This document shows positions 10,313 through 61,805 of a stretch of DNA of 64,000 nucleotides, piece by piece. The notes below the pieces were generated by a model. The model was not told the DNA's origin and searched no databases. It saw nothing but the letters and a program-made list of their open reading frames with translations. How positions within the stretch are numbered: position 1 is the stretch's first letter; every line of letters begins with the position of its first letter. The stretch is taken from NCBI GenBank assembly GCA_019359325.1, contig JAHHHN010000012.1, positions 5,995 to 69,994 of the forward strand. Reading direction: 5' to 3'. The translations under genes were made by a program, and so were the position numbers. Origin of the DNA: Mojavia pulchra JT2-VF2 (GTDB lineage: Bacteria; Cyanobacteriota; Cyanobacteriia; Cyanobacteriales; Nostocaceae).

Positions 10313-10512
10313 AATTCAAAATGTAACAACGAATTTCTTATTCAGCTTTCTGGCAATTTATCATCTCCAAGTTATATTTATTTTGAATCCAAAGTTTTTA
10401 TCAAAAAGCTGTTAACTTAATTTCAAACAAAACTACGTATTTAAAGTTGCTATGAAATGATATTAGATAATCAGAAGCTCATTAAACCCTGCTAATATAT
10501 GTTGGTTGTTTT

Positions 10513-42446: not shown

Positions 42447-42555
42447 ATAAATAACTAAGTATTTAGTTCTGAGTGGCAGCAATTATAAATTAGATTTTAG
42501 TCAAATATCTTGACAATTTATTAATTATTAAGGCATACTAGAGAACGCATCTCAA

Positions 42556-42628
42556 GGGGTTATAGCTCAGTTGGTAGAGCGCTGCAATGGCATTGCAGAG
42601 GTCAGCGGTTCGAACCCGCTTAGCTCCA
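42556..42628 (+). tRNA. tRNA-Ala (anticodon GGC)
   Basis: Cloverleaf folded by hand: acceptor GGGGTTA/TAGCTCC with G3:U70, D-arm GCTC/GAGC, anticodon stem CTGCA/TGCAG with loop ATGGCAT (GGC at 42589-42591), T-arm AGCGG-TTCGAAC-CCGCT, discriminator A73; CCA not encoded. Confidence 0.85.
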
Positions 42629-42660
42629 TCCCTTAATAACTACTATCCCGCATTAAATTT

Positions 42661-42756
42661 TGTGACTTTACCCATAACTTTGCCGCAATGGCAAGCTTAT
42701 GGTTCCAGTAGAAGGCGGCAAAGTTATGGTTCCAATTTCTGGGTAATTTTTAAGCT
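42661..42756. repeat. tnsD-proximal transposon end with ~3 closely spaced TnsB-type binding repeats
   Basis: tgtgactttacccataactttgccgc, aagcttatggttcca, ggcggcaaagttatggttcca. Confidence 0.75.
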
Positions 42757-44232
42757 TCATAACTCAAGTTCGCGATTCGCTTCTCTAAGAGCTAATCTAA
42801 CTTTTTTGTATCGGAAGTACCCTGGTCTGGAAACTAGCTCTGAAACAGCAGATTCAGTAGGATATTTACCCTGATTATGTAGCTCAAAAGCAACTAGTCG
42901 CACTTCCTGGCAGCATTCCTCTATTATTTTCTTATGGTAATCTTTCTGATAGCTGTCATACTTGGCAGAGATAGCACGACATAAATCTGGAAAATGTTTG
43001 TAAATCGTTTTTCTATTAACTTCTAACTGCCTAGCAACTTCCTCCATAGATAAAGGAGGAGACTCATCATTTTTGAGTAGCTCTTCTAAATAGAATTTGA
43101 CTCTCTCAGCATTAAATGGCTTATTCCTTGTTCTTAATGTAGTTTTAGCTTCCGTTGCTCCCAATTTCTTTGAGAGAGATAAATTATTATTTTCTTCGGT
43201 CAAAAAGCTTAGAATTGATACTCCAAAACAGTAACAAATATTTGTCAGTGCTTCAAGAGAAGGTAAATTTTTACCTTTACACCATAGCCAAACTGTATTT
43301 CTGGGAACATTAATCTGACGAGCGAATTCAGCTATATTTCCTTCTGCAATTTGCTCAACCCACTTCGATAGAGTGAGAGCGATTGTAGTAGGAGATAGAG
43401 CATCATTCAAATATGGAGTAGCAGCAATTAATTCTCCAAGAGCCTTAGCAGACCATATTTTCTGCTCTAGCTCATTTTTTTTCAAAGCATTCCTATTAGC
43501 TGATTCTTGGGATAGAATCAGTCCTAACCACTCTCCACATTTTGAACAATATCCTGGTTGCGATCGCCAAGCTAGCGTAGTGTTTTTTTGATGACAATGA
43601 GGACACTCACAAATTAATTGATGGTGGTGATAGGGGCATATTTTTACTACATCTAGCGACCAAAGTAAAGGCTCATAAATTAATTGTTTTTTCTCATACC
43701 ATTCTTGATAACAACTCGGACACCAAGCCCGAACAGAGCGTAGTAAATTTCTAGAAGGGAATAGTTTGTCCCAAGTTAGTAAAGTAAGAAAGCATAAGTC
43801 GTCACGGAGCGTTAATTTCTGTAGAGCTTGAACTAAGTCCTTTGCCATGACACCGCTACCGTTGAGTGCGGTAGTGTAATTATATATTCTGTGTAAATTG
43901 GCACCTCCATACTCTTTGTTAACAAGCGTTGCGAGTTGCTTCTCCATTAAAACCCCTGGATTAACACAATGAGCTTCTGCTAACCGAGATATATAACCAG
44001 TTAAACTTTCCACTAATGGAGTGCCAATACCAACAGGCTGTAATTGATACAAGCGACTACGAGATGGAATAGAAAGCTTTTTTAAATCCCAAGATTCGTA
44101 TGTTTCTAATACACTAGCTAACATCTTGCTGCACTCCGATGGGATCTCTTTTAGGTTTGCGTTTGCCAACCTTTCCTGGCGGACGAGTAGTTTTTGGGGT
44201 TTCTTCGGGTAGCACAATTGGTTTTGCGCCAA
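42757..44232 (-). CDS. tnsD: TnsD-like target selector (TniQ N-terminal domain with Zn-finger plus C-terminal HTH extension)
   Basis: WCPSCYQEW...CPYHHHQLICECPHCHQ zinc ribbon shared with the short TniQ at 48449; C-terminal HTH NIAEFARQINVPRNTVWLWCKG; 5' end overlaps tnsC so true start may be internal. Confidence 0.8.
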   Translation of the reverse strand: MAQNQLCYPKKPQKLLVRQERLANANLKEIPSECSKMLASVLETYESWDLKKLSIPSRSRLYQLQPVGIGTPLVESLTGYISRLAEAHCVNPGVLMEKQLATLVNKEYGGANLHRIYNYTTALNGSGVMAKDLVQALQKLTLRDDLCFLTLLTWDKLFPSRNLLRSVRAWCPSCYQEWYEKKQLIYEPLLWSLDVVKICPYHHHQLICECPHCHQKNTTLAWRSQPGYCSKCGEWLGLILSQESANRNALKKNELEQKIWSAKALGELIAATPYLNDALSPTTIALTLSKWVEQIAEGNIAEFARQINVPRNTVWLWCKGKNLPSLEALTNICYCFGVSILSFLTEENNNLSLSKKLGATEAKTTLRTRNKPFNAERVKFYLEELLKNDESPPLSMEEVARQLEVNRKTIYKHFPDLCRAISAKYDSYQKDYHKKIIEECCQEVRLVAFELHNQGKYPTESAVSELVSRPGYFRYKKVRLALREANRELEL

Positions 44233-45265
44233 GTCCTAATGCAGAGCGTAAGTTTTGTATATCTGTTTCTGTTTCAGATAATTGTCGTTCGCCCTCTTGA
44301 ATTTCCTTGAACATTCTCTGACACTGAGCAACCGACCAAGCACGTTTTTGTAAGTCTTTGAGAGTGATTGTTGTTGCTTCCCGATCCAGAGCATCTTTAA
44401 GAGCGCGTGTTAGCCAATTTTTCAGTATGCCAACACATCCTAATGTACGTTCATAAAAATATTCCCAATGAGTAACTAAATCTGGATGCTCTGCAAGTGG
44501 CATCTGCTGTTGAAAAGTCAACAATACACTTTTAAAAGCCTGTACATCATCTGAATTGTCAGCACAATAACGGCGGAAATGAATATCGACGCTACGGCGT
44601 GAGAGTTGACCGCTCAAGTTACGGAATGTAAGTAGTTCGTATGTTCCTAATAGACAGTGCAAAATGCCTGTCATATTTGCCACAGATTTAAGGCAGTCTA
44701 ATTGATCTTGTAGCTTGTATCCGCTTGCCATCTTGCCAAAATGTTGTGCTTCATCTACAAAAAATACGTCTGGATGACGGTGGATGAGGGCATTTTCTAA
44801 AGCTCTGCGTAGAGCAGGTGCAACTACTTTCGACTCAACATTAATTTTTCCAAAATTATCGCGAGAGATACCACGCACACCATAATCAAACTTGTGATCG
44901 ATTAAGGGTTCCTCTAAGGCGATTAAGGCGCGTGTGTAGTAATCTTTCCAGTTGAAGTTTCTCGATTCTGGGGCTACAGCCTCAACACCAACAACAGGAA
45001 CACGACTGCGATCGCTTTCCAGTTTAGGTAATGCTAGTTCTGTTAATTTCTGCTCAACGCGGAGTCGCAAAGTTGTTTTACCAACACCACTAGCACCGTA
45101 AACAAAGATAAATGAAGCTCCTGCTGGTTCGGCAATCGTTCGCATGAGAATTTCATAGACTTCTTTAAGTCGAGGATGCGCTACGGTGTAATTCTCAAAG
45201 TAAGCAAGCCTTTCTGGAGCAGGTCGTGTGAGGAGTTCAAGCGGAAATCCAGTAGTTGGTGTCAT
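44114..45265 (-). CDS. tnsC: TnsC-like AAA+ ATPase transposition regulator
   Basis: Walker A VYGASGVGKTT, Walker B VFFVDEAQH. Confidence 0.8.
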   Translation of the reverse strand: MTPTTGFPLELLTRPAPERLAYFENYTVAHPRLKEVYEILMRTIAEPAGASFIFVYGASGVGKTTLRLRVEQKLTELALPKLESDRSRVPVVGVEAVAPESRNFNWKDYYTRALIALEEPLIDHKFDYGVRGISRDNFGKINVESKVVAPALRRALENALIHRHPDVFFVDEAQHFGKMASGYKLQDQLDCLKSVANMTGILHCLLGTYELLTFRNLSGQLSRRSVDIHFRRYCADNSDDVQAFKSVLLTFQQQMPLAEHPDLVTHWEYFYERTLGCVGILKNWLTRALKDALDREATTITLKDLQKRAWSVAQCQRMFKEIQEGERQLSETETDIQNLRSALGLGAKPIVLPEETPKTTRPPGKVGKRKPKRDPIGVQQDVS

Positions 45266-45267
45266 AA

Positions 45268-47964: not shown

Positions 47965-48137
47965 ATAGTCCTTACTAAGCGCTTTGCGCTTGATTTTATG
48001 AATCTATCAAAATCAGACCATAAAGTTAGGAACTTGTTTACCTGATGCTATACTGCTTAACTTTATAACACTTATAGTGTGCAAAAAACCACTGATAGTA
48101 GGTAGATTTAACAGCGATACTGCTTCAGTATTGTTTT

Positions 48138-48398
48138 GTGACACAGAAACACTTCAGTATTGAGTACCGCTTTGGCAAAGCGATTAGGCGGCGAAGGCGA
48201 GAGCTAGATTTATCCCAAGAAGAACTGGCTGAAAAGTCAGGGCTTCACCGCAACTACATCTCAGGTATCGAAAACGGAGAGCGTAACCCTTCGTTAAAAA
48301 ATATTGTTAAGTTAGCGGCAGCTTTGGAGATATCTGTCTCCGCTCTCTTTGTTAATTACGGCATTGAGGTTAAAAGTGAATCGGAAACTAATTCCTGA
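48138..48398 (+). CDS. XRE-family helix-turn-helix transcriptional regulator (86 aa), divergent from tnsAB and upstream of tniQ
   Basis: LSQEELAEKSGLHRNYISGIENGERNPSLKNIVKLAAAL HTH_XRE signature. Confidence 0.75.
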   Translation: MTQKHFSIEYRFGKAIRRRRRELDLSQEELAEKSGLHRNYISGIENGERNPSLKNIVKLAAALEISVSALFVNYGIEVKSESETNS

Positions 48399-48448
48399 AA
48401 TTTGGCTGTTAAAACTAAAATACTAGCCTTTAGGTTAATCCCAGAGGG

Positions 48449-49438
48449 ATGACTATTTACTCAGAAAATTGGAACCTAAAACCTCCAGAAATCCCGCAAC
48501 GGAGTCGGTTATTTTCTCTTGAACCTGTGGCTGTGGGAGCTCCCTATGCAGAAAGTCTTAGTAGCTATCTCCATCGTCTAGCGCAGGCGCATTGTTTAAG
48601 CTCTCAAAAGCTCGTTATGGGAGAAATTGCGCCACTTATTCTCAAAGATGAGGATAAATCTGAGCTATTAGAACAAAATCTAAGTCACCTATTAGGAAAT
48701 AGCGACGCTAAACCTGCTATCAACGGAATGCGAGAAATGACAGGAAAGTTAGTCACTGTCTTAGAAGAGTTAACAATGCGTCAGGATTTACGCTTTTTGA
48801 CCCTTTTAAGCTGGAAAGGAATGATTTATGACAAGGGGTTATTTCGGAACTATCGCGCTTGGTGTCCTTGTTGTTGGCAAGAGTGGAAGCAGGAGAACAA
48901 AACTATTTATGAACCATTATTATGGTCATTTAAGGATGTAGAATTTTGTTTGATTCACAAACAGCGATTAATAGAAGAATGTCCTCATTGTGGTTCGCGT
49001 TTACCTGTGATGGCTAGGCTTTCACCTGCGGGATTTTGCTCTCGTTGTTACGGGTGGTTAGGACAGGAAATTAAAGGCGAAGAGGAAATAGAGAAATATC
49101 AAATTAATATTCAAGGAATTAGCGAATTAATTACACTTACTCCCCAATTAGGATATAAACCCATCCCGATTGAGTTAACCCGAAAATTACAATTGATTTT
49201 GTTAGTGTTTGAACAAGCAATTGGAAAGGATGTGAAGTTATTGGGAGATTTAGGGGGAATCATGGAATCGTTGAGGATAGCCTCAACAAGAAATCAAAGT
49301 CAACCTTATCATTTGGTGAAGTTGATTATTCCTGTGTGCGAGAAGGCGAAGATTACTGTATCCCAGCTGTTTGGGTCAGATTTTAAGGAATTGGGCAAGA
49401 TATTGTTCGGTAATTTTAGTCTGGAATTAAAGTTATAG
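48449..49438 (+). CDS. tniQ: Short TniQ-family protein (Cascade-associated targeting factor)
   Basis: N-terminal 200 aa align closely with the tnsD product (RSRLFSLEPVAVGAPYAESLSSYLHRLAQAHC; WCPCCWQEW...CPHCGSRL) but lacks the C-terminal HTH extension. Confidence 0.8.
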   Translation: MTIYSENWNLKPPEIPQRSRLFSLEPVAVGAPYAESLSSYLHRLAQAHCLSSQKLVMGEIAPLILKDEDKSELLEQNLSHLLGNSDAKPAINGMREMTGKLVTVLEELTMRQDLRFLTLLSWKGMIYDKGLFRNYRAWCPCCWQEWKQENKTIYEPLLWSFKDVEFCLIHKQRLIEECPHCGSRLPVMARLSPAGFCSRCYGWLGQEIKGEEEIEKYQINIQGISELITLTPQLGYKPIPIELTRKLQLILLVFEQAIGKDVKLLGDLGGIMESLRIASTRNQSQPYHLVKLIIPVCEKAKITVSQLFGSDFKELGKILFGNFSLELKL

Positions 49439-50045
49439 AAGTTTAGTATAAATAAAGATTTATGCTTAAAGGAGTTTAGAAGAGAAGAGACAATTGCTTT
49501 CCTAGATCGGTTCAGTCTGTGATTTTTGTATGGTTATACGACATTTATCATAAGTTAGCAGTTAAATTGGATAAGTACCTTTTGCTCCTTCACAACTGCG
49601 ATCGCCAATATAAACACCAACGATTTTTCGTGTGTTGACATCCTTATATTTTTACTGGGGCGATCGCACTCTTGCCCCCTCACGCAGCCCAATCTTTACA
49701 CAGCAATTCTGCCTGTTGCAGCACTGTCACCATCGCTTTCTCCTGCTTTTCTGGTGGATGTCGTATTTCCGAAGTAAAAGCTTGACTAATGGGCGGAAAT
49801 GTAGTTAAACGCTTTATGTGTCCAGTCGATAATAACGTTGCAGCGAACTGTTTCTACAAGGTCACGAGCGATTGCTACTACGAGAAACAATTATTATAGA
49901 TTCACTCTGTTTACAAATTCAGAGAAATGGCGGCAATATAGTGATTTGTAACTAAGATTAAGTGTCATCGAAAGCCATCACAAAAACTGCTGGAAAAATA
50001 GTTGACGCAGCAGATACCCCTTAGGGGTAAGATAAATTTTCGCTT

Positions 50046-51503
50046 ATGAGTACCACGACCTACGACCTAATTGCCAAGCTCTGGAATCTCTGTAACGTCC
50101 TCAAAGATGATGGCGTGACGTATCACCAATACGTTATTGAACTGACGTACCTGCTGTTTCTGAAGATGGCGAAAGAGACCCGCACTGAAAACCTGCTTCC
50201 AGAGGGTTATCGGTGGGACGATCTGGAAGGCAAGGCAGCAAATGAGCGTCTGGATTTTTACAAATTGCTGTTGATCCACCTTGGTAGTCGCGGTTCCACA
50301 CTTGTTAAAGAAATTTTTGCCAACGCCAATTCCTCTATCAACAAGCCCAATACACTTTCTACACTAGTTACTGAGATTGACAAGCTTGACTGGTATAGCG
50401 CCCGGCAAGAAGGATTGGGCGACGTGTATGAAGGGCTGCTGGAGAAGAACGCTAATGAAAAGAAATCCGGTGCTGGTCAGTACTTTACACCCCGTCCGCT
50501 GATCGATAGTATGGTGCATGTTATGCGCCCTACGTTGAAGGATGTTATTCAAGACCCCGCAGCAGGAACAGGCGGTTTTTTAATCGCCGCCAATCGCTAC
50601 ATACGCGAAAACAGTGACCCGGATATCTGGACAGAAAAACAGCAACGCAAGTACCGTAGCAATACCTTCTACGGTATGGAGCATGTGCAGGACACGCACC
50701 GTCTGGCTTTAATGAATCTAATGCTGCATGGGCTAGAGTTTGACCCGCAAGGGGCAGGTATCCGCTACGGCGATACGCTTTCGCCAGAGGGAGAAGCATT
50801 GCCGAAAGCAACGCTGATCCTTACCAATCCACCTTTCGGCTCCAAGAAAGGGGGTGGTCTACCTACTCGCAAAGACTTCACTTTTTCTACCAGTAATAAA
50901 CAATTTTGCTTTCTGCAACACATTTATGGTGGTCTCAAGCCTGGTGGTCGTGCTGCGGCAGTTTTTCCAGACAGTGTGTTATTTGACAGCAATGTCGGTA
51001 AGCAGATTCGCACTGAATTGATGGAAAAGTGCAACCTACATACCATCTTGCGCCTACCAAGTGGTATTTTTTATGCTCCAGGTGTTAAGACTAACGTGCT
51101 GTTTTTCACACGTGGTAAAAAAGAAAACGGTAATACCCAAGAAGTTTGGGTATACGATCTGCGTACTAACATATCGCAGTTTGGCAAGCGAACTCAACTT
51201 ACACGTAAGCACTTTGCCGAGTTTGAAGTTGCCTTTGGCGATGACCCTCTTGGTATGCCAGAAAGTCTTGCCAAGCGTGTAGATACTGGCGAGCAAGGGC
51301 GTTTTAGAAGATTTACCCGTGATTTGATCGCCAAACGCGGTGAAAACTTGTATATTGCTTGGCTTAAGGATGAAAACGAAGAGAATAATAGCAAACTCAC
51401 CGAACCAGAGTTGCTTGTACAAGAAGCGATGAGTGAACTGGAAGCTGCTCTGACAGAATTGCAGGAAATTCTAGAGGAGTTGGGTGAGGAGATTGAAGCA
51501 TGA
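50046..51503 (+). CDS. hsdM: Type I restriction-modification N6-adenine DNA methyltransferase subunit
   Basis: HsdM N-terminal domain, AdoMet motif DPAAGTGGFL, catalytic NPPFG. Confidence 0.9.
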   Translation: MSTTTYDLIAKLWNLCNVLKDDGVTYHQYVIELTYLLFLKMAKETRTENLLPEGYRWDDLEGKAANERLDFYKLLLIHLGSRGSTLVKEIFANANSSINKPNTLSTLVTEIDKLDWYSARQEGLGDVYEGLLEKNANEKKSGAGQYFTPRPLIDSMVHVMRPTLKDVIQDPAAGTGGFLIAANRYIRENSDPDIWTEKQQRKYRSNTFYGMEHVQDTHRLALMNLMLHGLEFDPQGAGIRYGDTLSPEGEALPKATLILTNPPFGSKKGGGLPTRKDFTFSTSNKQFCFLQHIYGGLKPGGRAAAVFPDSVLFDSNVGKQIRTELMEKCNLHTILRLPSGIFYAPGVKTNVLFFTRGKKENGNTQEVWVYDLRTNISQFGKRTQLTRKHFAEFEVAFGDDPLGMPESLAKRVDTGEQGRFRRFTRDLIAKRGENLYIAWLKDENEENNSKLTEPELLVQEAMSELEAALTELQEILEELGEEIEA

Positions 51504-53164
51504 GTGAGCTTCCAGATGGGTGGATCATGACTCCGCTTGAGGATCTCGGCAACTGGGGTAGTGGAGGAACCCCCAAGAGAACTAATCCACGTTTCTATGT
51601 GAACGGTACTATCCCGTGGCTTGTCATTGGAGATCTAAATGACGGAATAGTTACGTATGCCCAAACCCACATTACTGAGGAGGGACTACTTAATAGCTCA
51701 GCACAACTTTTACCACCAAAAACATTGCTAGTTGCCATGTACGGTTCTATCGGCAAACTTGGCATTACTGGTATCACATGTGCAACAAATCAGGCAATCG
51801 CATTTTGCTGTACATATCAGGAAGTTATAGAACTGCGCTACCTATTCCACGCACTCAAAAATGCTAGGGATCTATTGGTTGCTAAAGGGCAGGGAGGAGC
51901 CCAACAGAACATAAACCAAACTATTCTAAAGGCTCATCAGATTCCGCTAGCCCCCCTCAACGAACAAAAACGCATCGCCGATAAGCTCGATGTCCTGCTG
52001 ATGCGGGTAGATGCCTGTCAAGAGAGACTAGATCGTGTGCCGCGCATTCTCAAACGTTTCCGCCAAAACATTCTTGATTTAGCAGTATCGGGAAAGCTAA
52101 CGGAAAGCTGGCGAGAAGACAATACTGTCAGAATCAGTAACACAGTTGAATTAATACAGATCGAACCTATAGGTGATTTTCTTAGTGCAATCAATTCGCT
52201 TGATTATGTTATTCCTGATGGTTGGGTATGGCTCAATCCTGACTTAATTAAATTTTCTGAAAAGCACTCACTTTCAATTGGTCCATTCGGAAGCAACCTG
52301 ACTGTTAAAGATTATAGAGATGCAGGTATTCCATTGGTATTTGTGCGAGATATACGCAGGAAAAATTTTGGTAACGAAACAACAAAGTTTATAAGTGAAC
52401 AAAAAGCTCAAGAACTATGGGCACATAGAGTCGAACCCGGTGATCTACTAATTACTAAAATGGGTGATCCACCCGGAGATGTCGCAGTCTTCCCTCTAGA
52501 TAGACCTATTTCAGTGATTACAGCCGATTGTATACGGATAAAAGTTAATCCTGAAATAGTAAGTATAAAACTGTTGTCACTGTTTATCGAGAGTAGTTTG
52601 ATTAGATCGCTAATAAAGGAGATAACTGCTGGCGTTGCCCAACAAAAAATAAGCTTGCAAAGATTCCGTTCTATGCCCCTACCTATTCCGCCACTTGATG
52701 AACAGCAAGAAATTGTTCGTCGTGTCGAATCGCTGTTCGCTTATGCTGATCGCCTCGAAGCCCACTATCAAGCCGCCTGTACTCAGATCGAGCGTTTAAC
52801 ACCAGTACTCTTGGCTAAAGCCTTTCGTGGCGAACTCGTACCCCAAGACCCCAATGATGAATCAGCATCTGTGCTGTTGGAGCGGATTCACGCTGAGCGA
52901 GCAGCACAACCCGCCAAAGCTAAGAGAGACATAACTTCTAGAAAACCAGCCATGACCAAAATGACCAAAGAATCTGTCAAAGAAGCAATTCGGCAATTAC
53001 CTCAGAACAAATTTTCATTCGATGAACTGCGTGAAAACCTCACTGGTGATTATGACTCACTAAAAGATATCCTGTTTACACTCCTCAGTGAAGCCAAGCC
53101 AATTCTTACCCAGGTCTTCGATCAAGAGGAGCAAGCGATGCGTTTTTTTCGGGCAGGCAAATGA
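51500..53164 (+). CDS. hsdS: Type I restriction-modification specificity subunit (two target recognition domains)
   Basis: Conserved HsdS central and C-terminal coiled regions (LPPLDEQQEIVRRVESLFAYADRLEA...LAKAFRGELV) flanking two variable TRDs; start overlaps hsdM stop. Confidence 0.85.
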   Translation: MSELPDGWIMTPLEDLGNWGSGGTPKRTNPRFYVNGTIPWLVIGDLNDGIVTYAQTHITEEGLLNSSAQLLPPKTLLVAMYGSIGKLGITGITCATNQAIAFCCTYQEVIELRYLFHALKNARDLLVAKGQGGAQQNINQTILKAHQIPLAPLNEQKRIADKLDVLLMRVDACQERLDRVPRILKRFRQNILDLAVSGKLTESWREDNTVRISNTVELIQIEPIGDFLSAINSLDYVIPDGWVWLNPDLIKFSEKHSLSIGPFGSNLTVKDYRDAGIPLVFVRDIRRKNFGNETTKFISEQKAQELWAHRVEPGDLLITKMGDPPGDVAVFPLDRPISVITADCIRIKVNPEIVSIKLLSLFIESSLIRSLIKEITAGVAQQKISLQRFRSMPLPIPPLDEQQEIVRRVESLFAYADRLEAHYQAACTQIERLTPVLLAKAFRGELVPQDPNDESASVLLERIHAERAAQPAKAKRDITSRKPAMTKMTKESVKEAIRQLPQNKFSFDELRENLTGDYDSLKDILFTLLSEAKPILTQVFDQEEQAMRFFRAGK

Positions 53165-54786
53165 AGCTTTTAAGGGTTCACATCATTTATGCTAAAACTT
53201 GCGGGGGGCTACTTGATGGACTGAACTTACAGTTACGAAGTCCATTTAGTGGCTATTCTGGGTTTGATCCTTTATGTCTTATTGGTCCGAATGGCGCAGG
53301 AAAATCTCAATTCTTGCAAGTGCTAACAGAAATTTTTCAGTCTGTTTTCCACACATGCCTTCCCAATGAAGAACGTTCCGAAGGGCCAGACTTGCATTTC
53401 GAGCTTGAGTACCTCATTCACCCAGAAGATGAGCAGCTACCTGTCCGTGTCCGCATTTCACGGAAAGCCAGTCGTAAAAATCGTCCAAGCCTTGTAATTG
53501 AGCGGAGAGATGAAGATGAATACGACTGGATAGAATGTGACCTCAAAGCTCCTGAAACCCATAAACTTTTACCTCAAAAGATTGTTGGCTATACGTCAGG
53601 CGATAATGAAACGCTTAGTTTGCCGTTCCTCTTAAGTCGCAGTGGGTACGCGAAGGATGTAACCGAAAGTGCATTACACGAGCCAAAACGCGTTCCCGAT
53701 ACTCGGCTAATGCTGATTGACTATGGAACGCACCTTGAAGTTTTTGTGGCAAATCTCCTGTTGGGTGATGCTTCCCAGTGGGATTTTCTGCTACAGGATG
53801 CAAAACTGCAAAACCTGCACTCATTTCGTTGCATAGTCCAACTTGCACACAGTGCAGCCCCGAAGATTCCAAGTAGGAGAGGCTCACAAAGTACGCGAAA
53901 AGGAATACAACTTACCAAGGAACTGGAAGATTATCTCGATCAGCTCCAACGTTGCGCTACCTGCTACACCTATGACGATAAAACAGAGACGTATACCTTT
54001 GACTATTGGATAAATGACCAGACAAGAGAAGCGTTTCGCTCCTTTTGGAACAACACGCTTGATTTGTACTCGTCATTCCACAAGTTCGCAATGTTAAACG
54101 ACTTGGTACTTCCCAAGAAAACCCGTGAGCGGTTTCGGAAAGACACCAAATCGAGAAGGTTTGCTTCACGTCTTCCAGAGCCTCAGGATGAAGATAAGGT
54201 TTTCCGATTTGAAAGCGTTATGTTTACTGCTCAAAGGACTGGCAAAGAGGTAGACTACGTATCGCTTTCCGATGGCGAGCATCAGCTTGGGCAGATTCTT
54301 GGAACATTTTGTATGTTGTCATTTCCTAATGTACTTTTCCTGCTTGATGAGCCTGAGTCGCATTTCAATCCGCTATGGCGGGTGAAATTCATTTCACGCA
54401 TATTGGATCTGCCTACTACACATGGCGATCGCAGAGAATCAGCTAAAGCTACTGAACAAGAGTGCTTACTAACAACACACTCGCCTTTCGTCCCCTCTGA
54501 TATGCATAGAGACAAAGTTTTTATTTTTAGCAAAGACGAAGAAGGGAAGATTCAAGTCCAAAATCCTAATATTGAGACATTTGGCACTACATTCGACACA
54601 ATCATTGAGGAATGCTTTAACGTTCGCCCGCCTATGTCACAAGTTCCTCATGATGAGATTAAAAGGCTTATGGAGAGTGAAAATCCCGAAGAGATTAGGG
54701 CAGGGATGCAGCATCTAGGTGATTCTGTTGAGAAAGCATTTCTTGTTGATCGACTGTTGCAGCTAACAAATAGGGATGAGGTGTAG
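53161..54786 (+). CDS. ABC/SMC-like ATPase of the AAA_15/AAA_21 type (Septu PtuA-like) translationally coupled to hsdS
   Basis: Walker A LIGPNGAGKSQ, signature-like LSDGEHQ, Walker B LFLLDEPESHFNP, H-loop LLTTHSP; ATGA overlap with hsdS stop. Confidence 0.7.
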   Translation: MKLLRVHIIYAKTCGGLLDGLNLQLRSPFSGYSGFDPLCLIGPNGAGKSQFLQVLTEIFQSVFHTCLPNEERSEGPDLHFELEYLIHPEDEQLPVRVRISRKASRKNRPSLVIERRDEDEYDWIECDLKAPETHKLLPQKIVGYTSGDNETLSLPFLLSRSGYAKDVTESALHEPKRVPDTRLMLIDYGTHLEVFVANLLLGDASQWDFLLQDAKLQNLHSFRCIVQLAHSAAPKIPSRRGSQSTRKGIQLTKELEDYLDQLQRCATCYTYDDKTETYTFDYWINDQTREAFRSFWNNTLDLYSSFHKFAMLNDLVLPKKTRERFRKDTKSRRFASRLPEPQDEDKVFRFESVMFTAQRTGKEVDYVSLSDGEHQLGQILGTFCMLSFPNVLFLLDEPESHFNPLWRVKFISRILDLPTTHGDRRESAKATEQECLLTTHSPFVPSDMHRDKVFIFSKDEEGKIQVQNPNIETFGTTFDTIIEECFNVRPPMSQVPHDEIKRLMESENPEEIRAGMQHLGDSVEKAFLVDRLLQLTNRDEV

Positions 54787-55870
54787 GATGCTGTTTGGGT
54801 ATCCCGTTTCGGCAACAGCGGAAAATTGGCTTCACGAATGCTTACGCGAGATTCTGTGTTCAATTCATACAAGCCTAAAAGCAGCAGCCACTCTGCCAGC
54901 ATGGCCTGAAATTATTCCAGCGCAATACCGAAAAAGGTTGGAAAAACGCCGAGGGCTGGAAGATAGGTTGAATAATTACAAGACAGCTTTAGAAAAGCTT
55001 ACCACCGCAGAACAGAACCGAATTCTTCAAGCATTCCATGACCAAAATCAGATTGATCTTCTCTTGTCTTGCCAATTGAACTGTGAAGCTATCGGTGATT
55101 TGCCAGAAGTCATTCATGAGCCAGTAAAAAAACTTTTTGAATTTGGGTTTGAACTTCTCACAAAACTGGAAATCCGCGATAAGCACTACAAGGTAATTTA
55201 TGATGCGGCTCCCTCTCATACATGTCCTTTCTGTGGGTGTGAGTACTTTGATGCACCAGAAGCACCCCGTGAAGCATTGGATCATTACCTGGCAGAAAGC
55301 AAATACCCATTTGCTGCTTCAAATTTGCGTAACCTTGTTCCAATGGGAAATAAATGTAACTCTCGCTACAAACTTGCGAAGGATATTCTCTTGAGGAATG
55401 ACGGCACTCGTCGCAAATCGTTTGACCCTTACAACTGTACAGGAATCAGACTCTCTCTCGAAAACAGTCAGCCTTTTGCTGGTACACTTGCACCAACTGG
55501 TCAACTACCGCGATGGCAAATCGAGTTTGGCCCAAACACTGAAGAGGTGATTACTTGGGATGAAGTGTTCCATATCAGAGAACGATATGAAAGAGACGTG
55601 CTAAACGCTGAATTTATAAGTTGGCTAAGGTATTTCCAGTCTTGGTGCAAATCTGCGAAAATTGCGCCTAGTTCTGACCAAGAATTGATGGATGCGCTCA
55701 ATCGTTGTGCAACCCACTGCGAAGAGATGGGGATTAGCGATCGCGCGTTCTTAAAAGCCGCTGTATTCCGAATGTTGCACACACATTGCCAGCAAGGTGA
55801 TCAACGACTTATTTCATTGATCATGAGTATTGTGAACCCAGGACAAACCAATTTGCGGCAAGCCCCGTAA
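54776..55870 (+). CDS. HNH-family nuclease (Septu PtuB-like) overlapping the ATPase gene end
   Basis: HTCPFCGC...ALDHYLAESKYP...NLVPMGNKCNSRYK = Cys pair, His, Asn-Asn of HNH motif. Confidence 0.65.
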   Translation: MRCRMLFGYPVSATAENWLHECLREILCSIHTSLKAAATLPAWPEIIPAQYRKRLEKRRGLEDRLNNYKTALEKLTTAEQNRILQAFHDQNQIDLLLSCQLNCEAIGDLPEVIHEPVKKLFEFGFELLTKLEIRDKHYKVIYDAAPSHTCPFCGCEYFDAPEAPREALDHYLAESKYPFAASNLRNLVPMGNKCNSRYKLAKDILLRNDGTRRKSFDPYNCTGIRLSLENSQPFAGTLAPTGQLPRWQIEFGPNTEEVITWDEVFHIRERYERDVLNAEFISWLRYFQSWCKSAKIAPSSDQELMDALNRCATHCEEMGISDRAFLKAAVFRMLHTHCQQGDQRLISLIMSIVNPGQTNLRQAP

Positions 55871-55972
55871 ACTAAATCAATTTTGACGCGATCGCTTTTA
55901 TCCTACATCCTCATAGTTTGTAAACTGTAGTAGCCCAAAATTCTACTATTTGTTTACTGGTGTAGCTATTAT

Positions 55973-56266
55973 ATGAGCGATAAGGGTAAAAAAGAAACAA
56001 AAATGTATATTTATATTACAGATGTTGTATTCGTTGCTTGGAATAAAGACAGAGGAGAGCTTTTAAAGCGATTGCGTGGGAAAAAATCGCGGCAGAAACT
56101 AGCTGATGAAATTGCAGCCAAGGGAGGTGAATGCTCCCATCAAAACATTAAAAAACTAGAGTATGGTGAGTCTGAAAGTGTTTCTATAAAAGTATTAGAG
56201 GCTATTTGTGCTGCATTGAATATTTCTCTGAGCGACTTCCTTAGCGTTGTAGAAGTGACTCATTAA
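55973..56266 (+). CDS. XRE-family HTH regulator (97 aa)
   Basis: SRQKLADEIAAKGGECSHQNIKKLEYGE...LEAICAALNISLSDFL HTH signature. Confidence 0.65.
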   Translation: MSDKGKKETKMYIYITDVVFVAWNKDRGELLKRLRGKKSRQKLADEIAAKGGECSHQNIKKLEYGESESVSIKVLEAICAALNISLSDFLSVVEVTH

Positions 56267-56317
56267 AGTTTTGGATATCTTCTTGCTTTTTAGCTACTAA
56301 AGTTACTAATATATCTT

Positions 56318-56701
56318 ATGAAATCAAAAAGGCGATCGCCCTCCGGCAAGAGAAATGCGATCGCCTTTTGTTCAACCCCGTTAATGAGGTCACTCATGAT
56401 GATTGTACAAGATGACTTTAGCAACTCAGCCTTGGCTGAATCAGAGTTTGAGGAATATATTGACCACCTGGCCGACCCAGTAGCACCAGAAATTGAAATT
56501 GACTCAGTAGCAGATGACTTGGGTGAACTGTATCGAGTCTGGAATGGTTCTCAACTACTTGGCACTTTCTACCAAAATCTGGAAAGTAAATGGATAGCAC
56601 AACCCTGTAATAGCGATGACAGGCAATGCTGTGACACTCCTTTGGCAGCGCAAATAATCATCATCGCTGTTAATGGCTTACTTGTAGCCGACGTAGCATA
56701 A
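56318..56701 (+). CDS. Hypothetical acidic protein (true start probably internal, ~100 aa)
   Basis: ORF only; N-terminal 20 codons contain two HIP1 sites and look non-coding. Confidence 0.3.
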   Translation: MKSKRRSPSGKRNAIAFCSTPLMRSLMMIVQDDFSNSALAESEFEEYIDHLADPVAPEIEIDSVADDLGELYRVWNGSQLLGTFYQNLESKWIAQPCNSDDRQCCDTPLAAQIIIIAVNGLLVADVA

Positions 56702-56893
56702 CACACAAAGCATTTATCCCATCGACTTGGAGAGGTGATTCAATCACCTCTCTTTTTTGTATGCTTTGTCAAGTTCACTTTCTAGAAATGCACTGGCTCT
56801 TTGAGAACAGTTTTCTCGCAAAGCAGCAACTCTGACAACCTTCCAGCGCATAATTTCTTCTCTACATTCATCAAGCTGCTTGATTCGCCCTAG

Positions 56894-57076
56894 TTTGAGC
56901 AACGCCTAACGGCATCAAGCCACGAATCACAAATTTGTCTACCCCGTTCGTACCATTCTTCTCTATTTTGAGCAACGCCTAACGGCATCAAGCCACGAAT
57001 CACCTGCAAAAAAGGAATTTGTGCTTGTTGAGACCCGTACTTGAGCAACGCCTAACGGCATCAAGCCACGAATCAC
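56894..57076. CRISPR. CRISPR mini-array: 3 x 37-bp repeats ([T/C]TTGAGCAACGCCTAACGGCATCAAGCCACGAATCAC) at 56894-56930, 56967-57003, 57040-57076 with two 36-bp spacers
   Basis: Direct reading; third repeat differs at its first base. The array lies ~250 bp downstream of cas5 on the minus strand, so it is probably transcribed on the minus strand (repeat then reads GTGATTCGTGG...GTTGCTCAAR). Confidence 0.85.
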
Positions 57077-57324
57077 AGCAAAGCTGAAAATCCTTAACTG
57101 AGGAAGGCTCATTTACAATCTTACAAGTACCTTCCAGATCAAGAAACCAAAAACTCAAAACCTACCAAAGTTTCCCTTATTTTCAGCCCCTCAAACCCAG
57201 TGCTGATCAACTTTTCCAAAAATAGCAAGCACCTTTTTCCTTGCCTCAATTCCCATATCCCTTACCGTGTAAACCTTGCCGCCATTCTTTTACCCTGAAT
57301 TCCCTTTCCAATAAGAGATACTTG

Positions 57325-57963
57325 TCAAATTGGAGATTGAATCATCGTCCACGCCAAATCAGGAGGAGGTGAGCTTGACATTTCCTCAATCCGATACCTC
57401 AAAAATCGGGTATTTCTTGACCCCACATGGTCAACCCAATAGGGTAAGGTTAACCTACCTCGATTATCCCTAATTACCCACTGTCTCACCCCCCCAAGAT
57501 AATCTTGGGAGACAAGTTTGATTGATTTAATCAACTGATCACTTTCTCCTAAAAATAAACAACCAAATCGTCTTACTAGCTCAGGATGGTCAAACGCTAA
57601 CTGTATCCTCTCCCTTAAACTTGGTTGTATTTTCTCCCCCTCAGAACGAACCCAAATCAAACACTTGAGATTAGACAAAATTTCTTGATAACCGGGAATA
57701 ACATTCTCTGGATGGCTAAAATCAGCATTTTTAAACCGTCTCATTTGACGCAAAATTCGCGACTTTTTGGGGCTAGATAACATTGCGATCGCCAATTCTA
57801 CCCCACAGTGGCGATAAACATCCGTTTCCCCTACCAAAGACAACAACATCCCATACACTGTTGCTGGAGATGGGACAGGATAGGTTTTTCCCATTTCTCT
57901 TGCATGGGACTCCCGAAAAGTCGCAAAGGGAACATCCAAATAGAGAATTAATGGTGCAATCAT
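57325..57963 (-). CDS. cas5: Cas5 (type I Cascade subunit)
   Basis: N-terminus MIAPLILYLDVPFATFRESHAREMGKTYPVPSPATVYGMLLSLVGE is the Cas5 RAMP signature. Confidence 0.75.
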   Translation of the reverse strand: MIAPLILYLDVPFATFRESHAREMGKTYPVPSPATVYGMLLSLVGETDVYRHCGVELAIAMLSSPKKSRILRQMRRFKNADFSHPENVIPGYQEILSNLKCLIWVRSEGEKIQPSLRERIQLAFDHPELVRRFGCLFLGESDQLIKSIKLVSQDYLGGVRQWVIRDNRGRLTLPYWVDHVGSRNTRFLRYRIEEMSSSPPPDLAWTMIQSPI

Positions 57964-58928
57964 TTTGATTCTTCTAAGCCCAAATCTCTTTTAATGACTG
58001 TTTTCAAGTCTTCAATCAGTTCATTTCGATTACGATAAATATGCGCCTTATTAAAAGTGGAATTCTCAAAATTATCCAATTCCTGTAACTCTTTGACCAT
58101 TGTTCCCCCAATCCACAATTGGCTAGGGTCAATCTGTCCGCATTCCACTTCATCGATAAATTCTTTTGTAAATTTTGCTTCCTTACTCTTAGGCTCACAA
58201 TATTCAAAGCAATAGGAAATGTATGAAGCAAAATTATTTGTCCATTGCAATACCAAACTATCGGGACAGAAAGGATAGTTAAAAATATTGCTACTCCCTC
58301 CTACCTTGGGTAATTCCATAATCCCATCTATCAGAGGTAAAATCCGCGAATAGTTTTTGAGATGAGTGGCATTAATTCCAAAATAATATTGATATCGAGT
58401 TGCGTGATATTCTGTAATATGGAGCGATGTACTATCCTTTTCCCTGCCACTTTTCGCCCCTAACTTGACTGCACCATCATAAGGCGTTAGCGAAACAGCC
58501 ATATTCATCGCTAAAGCACCAATTCGCTGATTAGGAGTGCTGGTTTTTTTTTGTTTCTTTTTTCTCTTTGTTGTTGAAGTCTCCTCCTCTGTCTCCGCAG
58601 ACTCTAATAAAGCAAACCCAAAAATATCATCATCATAAAATTGTTCTGGATCAAAATCTTCACTTGTTAACCGATTAATATGTTCATCTTCATCCCAAAC
58701 TCGATTAACTAAATAACCTTGCTTTTGAAGATAAAAGCGTAACGCCCAACGAATCGCGCTAGAACCTACAAAAGAATGAATTTTACCATTCCAATAGCCT
58801 TTTTGTAGAATAGTTTTATTTCCTCGTCTGATGTCATGATTTAAGGAGGCTAACCCATAACGAGTGAGGACTGTTCCGTAAAGATAATAATTGGGGATAT
58901 TATTGTCATTCTTCTTCTGACTCATCAT
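57960..58928 (-). CDS. cas7: Cas7 (type I-B Cascade backbone subunit)
   Basis: YLYGTVLTRYGLASLNHD...GSSAIRWALR N-terminus and glycine-rich thumb; 322 aa; start overlaps cas8 end. Confidence 0.75.
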   Translation of the reverse strand: MMSQKKNDNNIPNYYLYGTVLTRYGLASLNHDIRRGNKTILQKGYWNGKIHSFVGSSAIRWALRFYLQKQGYLVNRVWDEDEHINRLTSEDFDPEQFYDDDIFGFALLESAETEEETSTTKRKKKQKKTSTPNQRIGALAMNMAVSLTPYDGAVKLGAKSGREKDSTSLHITEYHATRYQYYFGINATHLKNYSRILPLIDGIMELPKVGGSSNIFNYPFCPDSLVLQWTNNFASYISYCFEYCEPKSKEAKFTKEFIDEVECGQIDPSQLWIGGTMVKELQELDNFENSTFNKAHIYRNRNELIEDLKTVIKRDLGLEESK

Positions 58929-60537
58929 TCACTTCTTCTGGTTTTTGATTGTTTGTAGATAAACTATCATCCCCACTGGTGGATTTATCTTTGGGTTTAT
59001 AACTGGCGATCGCTAACAATGACCAAATTCTTAGTTCTTGCCAAGGTGATTTTTTGATTAGTAGTGAAATTTCTTCTTGATGCTGATTAAAATACTTATT
59101 TAATCCCCCTCTTACTAAAAAGTCAGATAAATATTCCTTAAACGACAATTCATCATAACAATAGTTTAGCTCCGCCCTTAATCGTTCAACCTTCTTCTTA
59201 ATGGGAGGGTCTTTCCCTTCCTCAGCTTTAGCATACATTTTAGCAAAATTGCCTTTCATCGCTTGCTGAAATACCTTGATAAAAATAAGATACTGCTTGT
59301 CTTCTTCGCTATTCTCTGCCATTCTTATGAATCCTTCCCGATTGGGAAATATTTGGTTAAATAAGTATTCTTTTGAATCCTCTATCACCAATTTTTCCCA
59401 AAAATTAGACCACCAATGAATTCCCGTCACTAAATTATCAGCAATCAGCGAGCGAATTGGATTTACGTTAATAAAAATTTGCTTAGGTTTAATCTTCTGA
59501 TAATTTGCTTGAAAATATTTTTGAACCTGTTGATAAGTGATTAAAGTATTTTTATCAATTTCAATTTCTTGTATACTCATCAATGTTCTTTGACGAGAAG
59601 CTTGATTCATTTTTTCATATAACCAAACTTGACAAGCTTGATAGTAGTCGCCTTCAAGCTGAATATCGTCTAAGCTGTAATAAAGTAATCCTGCTTCACC
59701 AAGGCTACTAACATGAAGCTGTTTTGTTTCTAATTGCTGTAATCGCCATCTTCTTTGAGAAGCGTCTTCAAAATCCTTGATTTCTGGAATCACCACCAGG
59801 TAGCGATGGGGTTTCTTTCCCTTCAAGTCTTCTGATGGGATATGAAGTAAGCAATAATGACAAACTACTGGTACAAATAATAATGCTAAGGCGTATTCAG
59901 GTTTCTCTTCTAGTTTTGTAGTATTCTGCGTCCTAGCATGGCGAACAATTCCCCCTAAATACAACCAACTGGTTATTTGAACATAATCATGTCTGAGTTG
60001 TTGGGTATCTACTTCGTATAACTTCTCTGCAAAGGTTTGATGTGCGTACCAAGTTAGGGATTTGTATTGATACTCGACTTTTTTTTCTTCAAACTTTAGT
60101 TCAGTGTTAACTATCTCTCCCGCTTGATAAAACTGGTTATGACGCAGAAAAACAGCACACATTCCCTCATGAATATGAATTTTCTGACTTAAATCTATTG
60201 CATCATTGTCTAATCCTGTTAAATGAATTAAACCTGTATCATCTAATTGAAAAGACCCTTTAATTAACCAAGATAGGGCGACAAAAACACTTCCTTGCCA
60301 GAATAATTCAATAGTATCAGCAGTCAAAGACCATGATATATGTCCTCCGCGTTGACGAGATGAGGGATATTGCTTTTCTAATCGCTTTAAAGTCATGTAT
60401 AGTCCCGTCATTCCCACGCGGTGCATTATTGTCGTATCCGCAGCATTGAGAGATAGGGAGATTTTGGGTTGGGTAGCAACCATGATCAGGTTTCCTCTTC
60501 TTCCTTGCTGCGAGTCGCTGGGACAAATATTCCACAC
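58906..60537 (-). CDS. cas8: Cas8b-like large subunit
   Basis: 543 aa protein encoded between cas6 and cas7 in an overlapping operon; no strong motif, assignment by position and size. Confidence 0.6.
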   Translation of the reverse strand: MWNICPSDSQQGRRGNLIMVATQPKISLSLNAADTTIMHRVGMTGLYMTLKRLEKQYPSSRQRGGHISWSLTADTIELFWQGSVFVALSWLIKGSFQLDDTGLIHLTGLDNDAIDLSQKIHIHEGMCAVFLRHNQFYQAGEIVNTELKFEEKKVEYQYKSLTWYAHQTFAEKLYEVDTQQLRHDYVQITSWLYLGGIVRHARTQNTTKLEEKPEYALALLFVPVVCHYCLLHIPSEDLKGKKPHRYLVVIPEIKDFEDASQRRWRLQQLETKQLHVSSLGEAGLLYYSLDDIQLEGDYYQACQVWLYEKMNQASRQRTLMSIQEIEIDKNTLITYQQVQKYFQANYQKIKPKQIFINVNPIRSLIADNLVTGIHWWSNFWEKLVIEDSKEYLFNQIFPNREGFIRMAENSEEDKQYLIFIKVFQQAMKGNFAKMYAKAEEGKDPPIKKKVERLRAELNYCYDELSFKEYLSDFLVRGGLNKYFNQHQEEISLLIKKSPWQELRIWSLLAIASYKPKDKSTSGDDSLSTNNQKPEEVNDESEEE

Positions 60538-61148
60538 ATCATTTTTCGTTTCCCGCCAATTCCCTGTTCTTGCAACGTTAAGGAATCTTCTGGGTTGAGT
60601 GAGCTAATTTTTATGCCAAATCCTCTAACTTTAAACTGTTTCCCTTTTTGATTGATGGTTAATTGTCTTTTTTGAGGTGTTCCATCTTGTCGGGTAAGAA
60701 GTTCAATTTTTCCTTGTATTCCTTTATTATCCAGTTGCCGTTGCACAGCTTCAATAAAGTTAGTCGAGTCTTGAAAACCTGTAATTATGACTAATCTGGA
60801 ATAGACACTTTCTGAAGAAATTAACGGTTTGTAGTCGGGAATATCTAGTTGATAAGAATTTTGACCTATGTGAAAAGCTTGACCTGCTAAATAAAGATAA
60901 ATTAAAGGAATTTGTTGATGATGAATCCGAATTTTGAGGCGAGATTGAGCAGTAAGTTCAAGCAAATTATTTCTTGTCGGTATTCCAGCAATCGGATGAA
61001 TACCAATAGACTCTAGTTCGTGAAGGATAGGACAAATCCTGCACAATGCGCTATAGATAACATAACCATTATCAAGAGGAATCGGTGCGCCTCTGAGCTT
61101 AAACGTTAAGTCTACATATTCCTCACTTTGAATTAATATGGCTGCCAT
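60486..61148 (-). CDS. cas6: Cas6 crRNA endoribonuclease
   Basis: C-terminal glycine-rich loop GIGGKRKMMCGIFVP and ferredoxin-like N-terminus; 220 aa. Confidence 0.75.
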   Translation of the reverse strand: MAAILIQSEEYVDLTFKLRGAPIPLDNGYVIYSALCRICPILHELESIGIHPIAGIPTRNNLLELTAQSRLKIRIHHQQIPLIYLYLAGQAFHIGQNSYQLDIPDYKPLISSESVYSRLVIITGFQDSTNFIEAVQRQLDNKGIQGKIELLTRQDGTPQKRQLTINQKGKQFKVRGFGIKISSLNPEDSLTLQEQGIGGKRKMMCGIFVPATRSKEEEET

Positions 61149-61419
61149 AGATGGAAATTTCGAGAAAAATTTAAAGATGGCAGAGTTTGTTTAATACATC
61201 AACATTCTCTTGTGCAAAATTGCTCTCATTGTCATCGCCAACTAATTTGGTTAGACTAGCAATCCAGTTTAGGCTATTGTTCGCAATGTTCTCAATGGTT
61301 AGGAGGATATTATACTACTCCAGTAGTTACTCACAACAGTTCGATAGCCGAAAGTCTCTATCCCATACCAGCATGAACCGCTTCTGCTCCCTTCTAAAAA
61401 AATCCGGCGCTTTCCTGCT

Positions 61420-61595
61420 TTCTATGCTTAATTGGACTCACGGCAAGCTTATCCTTCCAACTGGGACTTGCGGCAAATTTATGGTTCCAAACTGGCAATT
61501 GCATCCAAAATTAGCTGACGCAAGAATGAGGGTTATAGTGACATTGACGGCAAAGTTATGGTTCCAGTAGCGGCAAAGTTATGGGTAAAGTCACA
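61420..61595. repeat. cas6-proximal transposon end with 4-5 dispersed TnsB-type repeats (cggcaagcttatccttcca, gcggcaaatttatggttcca, gacggcaaagttatggttcca, gcggcaaagttatgggtaaagtcaca)
   Basis: Direct reading; terminal 26 bp exact inverted repeat of 42661-42686. Confidence 0.75.
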
Positions 61596-61805
61596 AAATT
61601 TTGTGGCAACTTATGCTTGTTGTCACAAAATCGCAGTTTATGCTTGTAAGTCTCGGTAGTGTGCATGATGCTAAATCGCATGGCTGTACTCTAAATGTGC
61701 TGTTTTCAATCATTTGGAGCAAGCGAATAACCATAATGACAGGCATTATGGAAAAAGGTTGAATTTAATGGCTTATTGGCTGTTATTCAGTTCTATAAAT
61801 AACTC

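Follow-up and report, generated by a model that had tools for sequence, protein, structure and literature searches.

A CRISPR-associated transposon beside a tRNA-Ala gene

We analysed a 64-kb stretch of DNA from Mojavia pulchra JT2-VF2 (contig JAHHHN010000012.1; "the window", on whose numbering all coordinates are given) that carries a Tn7-like CRISPR-associated transposon (CAST) just downstream of a tRNA gene. The sole tRNA found in the window by ARAGORN is a tRNA-Ala with anticodon GGC, and Rfam RF00005 matches the same interval (65.9 bits, E = 3.9e-14). Its acceptor pairs, read from the sequence, are G1-C72, G2-C71, G3-T70, G4-C69, T5-G68, T6-A67 and A7-T66, with both G3:U70 and the discriminator A73 present; the gene is identical to those at three of the loci surveyed below (L005, L050 and L053). 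Feature coordinates are collected in Table 1.

The element begins with TGTGAC at 42661, after a 32-bp spacer, and its far terminus ends with GTCACA at 61595, giving an element of ~18.9 kb with TGT...ACA termini. An inverted repeat of 45 nt, 87% complementary, pairs 42655-42699 with 61557-61601, and the ends are of the Tn7 type, with multiple transposase-site repeats. The hexamer AAATTT stands at both flanks (42655-42660 and 61596-61601), which fits a putative target-site duplication of 5 bp that can be read in either of two registers, 1 bp apart, as AAATT or AATTT. The tRNA-proximal end is the one named the left end in PMC11837452, and its terminus is common to L001-L004, L006, L009-L011 and others. 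Within it (42661-42738) the terminal and next repeats are arranged as a near-palindrome (CCATAACTTTGCC GCAA TGGCAAGCTTATGG), not as a plain series of direct repeats; this arrangement is also seen in the ends of relatives. Inside the tRNA gene, the T-loop box GGTTCGAACC lies at 42607-42616, that is, 45-54 bp from the element end; this agrees roughly with a conserved motif 40-50 bp from the left end that is described in PMC11837452.

The gene closest to the tRNA is tnsD, which is transcribed toward it. An earlier note on this DNA had folded the tRNA by hand as Ala(GGC) with G3:U70 and A73, placed the start of the element 32 bp beyond its 3' end, and described the tnsD-proximal end as facing the tRNA; the isotype is borne out by ARAGORN, G3:U70 and A73 by our own reading of the sequence, and the distance and orientation stand as well.

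Class of the element and likeness to PmcCAST

Judged from its sequence, the element is an intact type I-B2.1 CAST with a core like that of PmcCAST (Tn7744, also type I-B2.1, from Peltigera membranacea cyanobiont 210A). Type I-B2.1 is defined by a tnsAB-tnsC-tnsD operon and a separately encoded tniQ (bioRxiv 10.1101/2021.10.18.464778). This layout is present: tnsAB, tnsC and tnsD follow one another on the - strand (47964 to 42757), tniQ is divergent on the + strand, and TnsA and TnsB are fused in one polypeptide, as expected for I-B2. The element carries all I-B2.1 parts, and its eight transposition and Cascade open reading frames (ORFs) are full length and without frameshifts.

Two TniQ-family proteins are encoded. 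The larger, TnsD (455 aa), has an N-terminal TniQ domain (Pfam E = 7.7e-18) followed by C-terminal helix-turn-helix (HTH) regions, and aligns over its full length with the PmcCAST TnsD (8v32_J/9bw1; E = 5e-138, 464 bits over 453 aa); the smaller, TniQ (329 aa), has a TniQ domain only and matches the PmcCAST TniQ 8fcu_P over residues 1-329 (695 bits). TnsAB matches 9bw1_M over residues 1-898 (1911.6 bits), and Cas8 matches 8fcj_I with 1068 bits over 525 aa. The mechanically called tnsD ORF takes as its start a TTG that precedes the likely start, M37 (44124), by 36 codons; residue 1 of PmcTnsD and nearly all of the ~455-aa homologues align from M37, and with this start tnsD overlaps tnsC by only 11 nt.

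PmcCAST and the window element thus share the fused TnsAB, the tnsAB-tnsC-tnsD operon, the divergent tniQ, the Cas6/8(11)/7/5 set and a short array, with near-identical TnsAB, TnsC, TniQ and Cas8/Cas11. In each case a tRNA gene lies ~30 bp upstream of the insertion, on the side of the tnsD-proximal end, and the terminal sequence in the window matches that of the Val(GAC) loci described below. They differ in cargo, in TnsD, which in the window is another cassette and matches its PmcCAST counterpart far less closely than the other chains match theirs, and in the attachment (att) site, which is tRNA-Ala(GGC) in the window and tRNA-Val in PmcCAST; binding of PmcTnsD to tRNA-Val DNA is reported in literature cited in PMC11837452.

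Table 1. Features of the element, its att site and flank, and the intron-containing tRNA-Leu(UAA) (Leu*) loci of the survey
Feature	Position	Strand	Basis
tRNA-Ala(GGC) gene, intact; putative TnsD recognition target (att site)	42556..42628	+	ARAGORN, Rfam, sequence reading
Spacer, 32 bp, from tRNA 3' end to transposon end	42629..42660	.	sequence
Putative target-site duplication, left copy (AAATT 42655-42659 or AATTT 42656-42660)	last 5 bp of spacer	.	sequence
tRNA-proximal transposon end: terminal TGTGACTTTACCCATAACTTTGCC and two transposase-site-like repeats (42690-42711, 42717-42738)	42661..42738	.	inverted repeat, direct-repeat family
tnsD, large TniQ-family target selector, 455 aa from M37 of a 491-aa ORF (ORF to 44232)	42757..44124	-	Pfam, PmcTnsD alignment
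tnsC, AAA+ regulator	44114..45265	-	Pfam AAA_22, TniB
tnsAB, fused endonuclease-transposase, 898 aa	45268..47964	-	Pfam TnsA N and C domains, rve, Mu-transposase C
Small XRE-type HTH gene, directly upstream of tniQ	48138..48398	+	Pfam HTH_3, E = 3.9e-20
tniQ, small TniQ, 329 aa, couples Cascade to TnsC in the RNA-guided pathway	48449..49438	+	Pfam TniQ, 8fcu_P match
Cargo: HsdM, HsdS, Septu-like PtuA ATPase, PtuB-like partner	50046..55870	+	Pfam, PADLOC
CRISPR array: three 37-nt repeats, two 36-nt spacers	56890..57076	-	repeat family, sequence
Type I-B Cascade operon	57325..61148	-	Pfam, PmcCAST chain matches
cas5	57325-57963	-	weak Pfam Cas5
cas7	57960-58928	-	gene position and homologues; no Pfam match
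cas8, internal Cas11 region at residues 406-543	58906-60537	-	8fcj_I match
cas6	60486-61148	-	Pfam Cas6, E = 1e-66
Distal transposon end, four repeat copies: 61442-61463, 61472-61493, 61549-61570, terminal 61572-61595 (...GTCACA)	61442..61595	.	repeat family, inverted repeat
Putative target-site duplication, right copy (AAATT 61596-61600 or AATTT 61597-61601)	61596..61601	.	compared with 42655-42660
Remnant, terminus of a different Tn7-like element, 26 bp, tip away from the tRNA	61602..61627	.	L013/L017/L050 type
Leu* loci: L016, L022, L024-L026, L029, L030, L032, L033, L035, L044, L046, L065, L067, L068, L071, L076	just downstream of tnsD		

Most loci with TnsD homologues have a tRNA gene at a fixed distance

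The window TnsD was aligned with 27 homologues, and 80 loci were taken from species-representative genomes. A tRNA gene, always on the opposite strand, lies directly beyond tnsD in 66 of these 80. ARAGORN finds the tRNA in 49; another 16, together with L044, which has a variant sequence, sit ~31 bp past the 3' exon of an intron-containing tRNA-Leu(UAA) gene (Leu*) that ARAGORN misses. At L016 the intron is recognised as group I (Rfam Intron_gpI, 75.9 bits). Surveys that use tRNA finders alone would therefore score the Leu* loci as non-tRNA sites. Outside the 66, most loci lie on contigs that stop no more than a few hundred bases from tnsD.

Spacing, measured from the tRNA discriminator base to the first base of the element, is 31-33 bp at the 21 tRNA-Ala(GGC) loci (32 in the window), 29-32 bp at 15 tRNA-Val(GAC) loci and 29-34 bp at Val(CAC), Val(TAC), Pro(GGG), Ala(TGC), Thr(TGT) and Leu(CAA) loci, so that 50 loci with eight tRNA types span 29-34 bp overall; it is 30-32 bp at 16 Leu* loci, except for L067, where a regular-expression search gave 25 bp. 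The Ala(GGC) loci come from Stigonema, Brasilonema, Nostoc, Rivularia, Aulosira, Richelia, Stenomitos, Oculatella, Elainella, Crocosphaera, Pleurocapsa and other genera, and among genera their spacer sequences are unrelated, leaving the tRNA gene as the sole conserved feature at a fixed distance. Because the combination of tRNA, strand and 31-33 bp distance is repeated in 21 independent species-level genomes while the spacers are unrelated, the adjacency is not due to chance. Among the closest relatives (L001-L004 and L072) the flanks are wholly different, which speaks for separate insertions and against descent from one event; the single orientation and the fixed distance to a conserved gene thus hold across independent insertions. 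The earlier note had read the geometry in the window as that of TnsD-directed homing and had named, as what would speak against it, homologous elements at unrelated sites with no tRNA; the 66 tRNA-associated loci, with their fixed spacing and orientation, bear its reading out.

Some loci depart from the simple arrangement. At L051 and L077 a tRNA-Ala(GGC) gene lies 7-8 kb downstream of tnsD, and L064 has two such genes, at 11506 and 19420, about 8 kb apart; these could be tandem elements at one att site, or cases of cargo between tnsD and the transposon end. L063, a metagenome-assembled genome of the Symbiobacteriaceae, encodes a TnsD homologue with 35% identity (tnsD at 10001-11365) along with TnsC and TnsAB homologues, and its element stands 33 bp from a tRNA-Ala(UGC) gene at 11557-11632. 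As L063 is not cyanobacterial, the tRNA-homing family extends beyond the cyanobacteria.

The att site follows tnsD rather than the rest of the machinery

In a neighbour-joining tree built from 44 full-length TnsDs, one large clade holds the Ala(GGC) proteins, that of the window among them, and another clade holds the Val(GAC) proteins. The other proteins tell of different relationships: window TnsC, TnsAB and TniQ are 88-97% identical to those of the Val(GAC)-site elements L006, L010, L011, L014, L015 and L057 (TniQ, 90-94%), whereas TnsD is only 51-54% identical to the TnsDs of these relatives. This discordance fits the view of the earlier note that a tRNA-Ala site would be a different TnsD specificity; the specificity does differ from the tRNA-Val one of PmcCAST.

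The discordance has sharp edges in the DNA. In a 100-nt sliding comparison with L010 and L015 (Val) and L016 (Leu*), identity is 85-100% across tnsAB and tnsC and for ~100 nt into tnsD, falls abruptly at about 44000 to 46-68% across the rest of tnsD, and recovers, in part only, at the transposon end. Against L003, a relative at an Ala site, identity stays within 82-99% over the whole length. These four comparisons place one breakpoint ~100-120 nt inside tnsD (43990-44124) and the other at the transposon end, and since the first lies that far inside the gene, the first ~40 codons of tnsD would travel with tnsC rather than with the specificity module. A breakpoint in mid-tnsD, which one long BLAST high-scoring segment pair had indicated, was discarded when the sliding-window alignment placed it at the 5' end of the gene.

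Because the drop in identity is confined to tnsD while the tRNA target changes, tnsD acts like a cassette that can be exchanged, and the att site goes with it. Target identity covaries with the selector TnsD and not with the rest of the machinery, as the tree, the discordant identities and the breakpoints each indicate. Cores in which TnsAB is 91% or more identical are found at Ala(GGC), at Val(GAC), at Leu(UAA)* and, once, at Thr(TGT). L072, from Richelia, is a second I-B2 CAST at tRNA-Ala(GGC), with Cas8, Cas7 and Cas5 81-91% identical to those of the window (Cas7 and Cas5, 90-91%). We propose tentatively, giving the proposal somewhat under an even chance of being right, that PmcCAST-type cores carry interchangeable tnsD cassettes which retarget homing among tRNA-Ala(GGC), tRNA-Val(GAC), the intron-containing tRNA-Leu(UAA) and possibly tRNA-Thr(UGU).

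The Ala and Val targets are much alike. Only six positions within the final 28 nt distinguish the Ala(GGC) gene from the Val(GAC) gene: the T-stem is AGCGG/CCGCT in Ala and ACTGG/CCAGT in Val, and the acceptor strand TAGCTCC in Ala and TACGTCC in Val; the anticodon arm differs further. The six positions, in the T-stem and the 3' strand of the acceptor stem, are candidate discriminators that TnsD may read. On the protein side, divergence between Ala and Val TnsDs peaks at ORF residues 246-370, where identity is 33-36%.

Probable homing at tRNA-Ala(GGC) and its alternatives

Taken together, these results make it very probable that the interval is the chromosomal att site of an intact type I-B2.1 CAST, reached by TnsD-directed homing at tRNA-Ala(GGC). 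That TnsD recognises tRNA-Ala DNA we infer by homology with PmcCAST, RoCAST, McCAST and CyCAST (the last three are described below). By this homology, TnsD would bind double-stranded DNA in the 3' part of the tRNA-Ala(GGC) gene and nucleate a TnsC ring; TnsC would recruit the TnsAB transposase, which would integrate the element in a single orientation, ~31-32 bp beyond the last base of the tRNA, with the tnsD-proximal end facing the tRNA, a 5-bp duplication being made and the tRNA gene kept intact. The small TniQ, Cascade and the two-spacer array would serve a separate RNA-guided pathway.

Some observations weigh against this reading. The target-site duplication is 1 bp off the strict TGT...ACA definition at one end. 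An empty site was sought through the flanking HisA-like protein, and only the source contig and a short contig, which breaks 24 bp inside the element, were returned, neither of them empty. A search for group-specific residues in TnsD did not localise the reading head; the 33 alignment columns that separate Ala from Val specificity are mildly enriched at ORF residues 107-141, outside the HTH regions, the Val group being shallow.

The site appears to have a history. Directly after the right-hand duplication lies a 26-bp remnant, the reverse complement of which matches the L013 end at 27 of 30 positions and includes the exact 18-mer GACAACAAGCATAAGTTG; the next bases are AAATC, against AAATT in the duplication of the element itself. 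L013, L017 and L050 are intact elements with this type of end, and they too stand at tRNA-Ala genes. This suggests that an earlier occupant of the same att site may have been almost wholly deleted, and that the site has been occupied on more than one occasion. None of the fetched loci resembles the right flank (61596-64000) in DNA sequence, and this flank contains no pseudogene of an element protein.

A possible objection, then, is that homing took place in an ancestor and that the present copy is a fossil, vertically inherited and immobile. The remnant beside the right end and the lack of an empty site among the few related contigs would agree with this, but against it stand full-length reading frames for all eight transposition and Cascade genes, the intact state of both termini and the flanking duplication, and flanks that differ completely among L001-L004 and L072; we regard it as improbable.

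A still less likely explanation is that, as in type V-K, I-F3 and some I-B1 CASTs, a dedicated spacer, possibly atypical or displaced, directs Cascade and TniQ to the tRNA by CRISPR RNA (crRNA) guidance, so that TnsD is not the selector. The element does encode a full Cascade and a small TniQ and does carry a CRISPR array, and tRNA genes are the usual crRNA-guided homing sites of type V-K CASTs (PMC11406308). Yet when the spacers and the post-array sequence were compared with 42450-42700, the best ungapped match was 20/36, and the only 11-mers common to the att region and the element fall in tniQ/tnsAB coding sequence rather than next to a repeat; both are at the level of noise, and with no repeat-adjacent match in the element we rejected this candidate on the evidence of sequence. 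Moreover, RNA-guided insertions of I-B2 elements occur 83-92 bp downstream of the protospacer adjacent motif and are less precise (PMC11915506), and the att site shifts with the tnsD cassette while TniQ stays 90-94% identical.

That the Tn7-like genes are cargo of a tRNA island carried by a tyrosine or serine recombinase is scarcely credible: tRNA genes are indeed the classic integration sites of integrase islands and prophages (noted also in PMC11837452), but 42661-61595 contains no integrase or recombinase by ORF inventory and Pfam, the insertion lies 32 bp downstream of the tRNA rather than within it, the far junction has no copy of the tRNA 3' end and 61596-61760 no tRNA-like sequence, and the termini are Tn7-type TGT...ACA inverted repeats with a 5-bp flanking repeat.

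Cascade, array and cargo

The Cascade set is a minimal I-B one, of Cas6, Cas8 with Cas11, Cas7 and Cas5 plus the short array. Cas8 residues 406-543 (58906-59322, - strand) match the Cas11 chain 8fcj_J with 265 bits, which implies that Cas11 would be made by internal translation within cas8, as in PmcCAST. By ORF inventory, no remaining ORF of the element is big enough for cas1 or cas3. Neither of the two spacers had a match in the plasmid collection at E <= 0.01.

The cargo scores in PADLOC as MTase_I (675 bits), Specificity_I (338 bits), PtuA (157 bits) and, weakly, PDC-M62B/PtuB. HsdM and HsdS are present without HsdR in the element; with the PtuA/PtuB-like pair they may make up a composite defence cargo. 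Besides the small XRE-type HTH gene upstream of tniQ, a second one is found between the cargo and the CRISPR array (55973-56266, + strand), and it is possible that the two regulate the RNA-guided module.

Relation to other homing transposons

Homing next to tRNA genes by a dedicated TnsD is known from several CASTs. RoCAST (type I-B2.2, from Rippkaea orientalis) homes to tRNA-Leu, 31 bp downstream, with TnsABC and TnsD alone (10.1101/2021.10.18.464778). The type I-D elements McCAST and CyCAST home to tRNA-Leu at 29 +/- 1 bp (PMC9881144) and at 30-33 nt (PMC10293859), respectively. In all three, as proposed for the window, TnsAB, TnsC and TnsD suffice for tRNA homing at a fixed 29-33 bp, and a second, small TniQ is kept for the RNA-guided pathway. 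RoCAST differs from the window element in its gene order, tnsAB-tnsC-tniQ with a separate tnsD, and in its tRNA-Leu target; McCAST and CyCAST differ in having a I-D Cascade and core proteins only ~50% identical to those of PmcCAST.

In Tn7, the end nearest tnsA, on the 5' side of the tns genes, faces glmS, unlike the window, where the target is closest to tnsD, with which the operon ends. Tn7 TnsABC+D at attTn7 (glmS) nonetheless resembles the window: a TniQ-family selector binds within the 3' end of a conserved gene, and insertion follows at a fixed distance downstream, in one orientation and with a 5-bp duplication, so that the gene stays intact (PMC2918618; PMC11406308); its target is a protein-coding gene, and its TnsA and TnsB are separate.

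The earlier note had given, as the reported homing sites of type I-B CASTs, glmS or tRNA-Val. That list is incomplete, tRNA-Leu and diverse other tRNAs being documented. Most elements with a TnsAB fusion are at tRNA att sites recognised by TnsD, with diverse tRNAs as targets, according to Hsieh & Peters 2023 (PMC9881144), and within the cyanobacterial TnsD family the legend of Fig. 6C in PMC11837452 (Mob DNA 2025) gives the targets as 'Val, Ala, Leu or Leu*'. The tRNA-targeting TnsD clade of cyanobacterial TnsAB-fusion elements in these two papers is the same family with the same tRNA-adjacent geometry. Homing at tRNA-Ala(GGC) is therefore a further member of a documented pattern and not a new kind of TnsD specificity. 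A search of the indexed literature for tRNA-Ala together with Tn7-like and TnsD returned no paper, and no experiment on an Ala-specific TnsD was found.

Current understanding of CAST homing is thus unchanged. What the window would add is one more natural TnsD selector, putatively for tRNA-Ala(GGC), on a transposon core that has already been engineered and structurally solved. The survey loci supply a swap series, in which one TnsAB/TnsC/TniQ core occurs with different tnsD cassettes and tRNA targets; it would be useful for learning how the selector reads its target or for obtaining orthogonal landing sites. If cassette exchange is undescribed and the Ala cassette is functional, these cassettes would form a set of natural orthogonal protein selectors sharing a single TnsABC.

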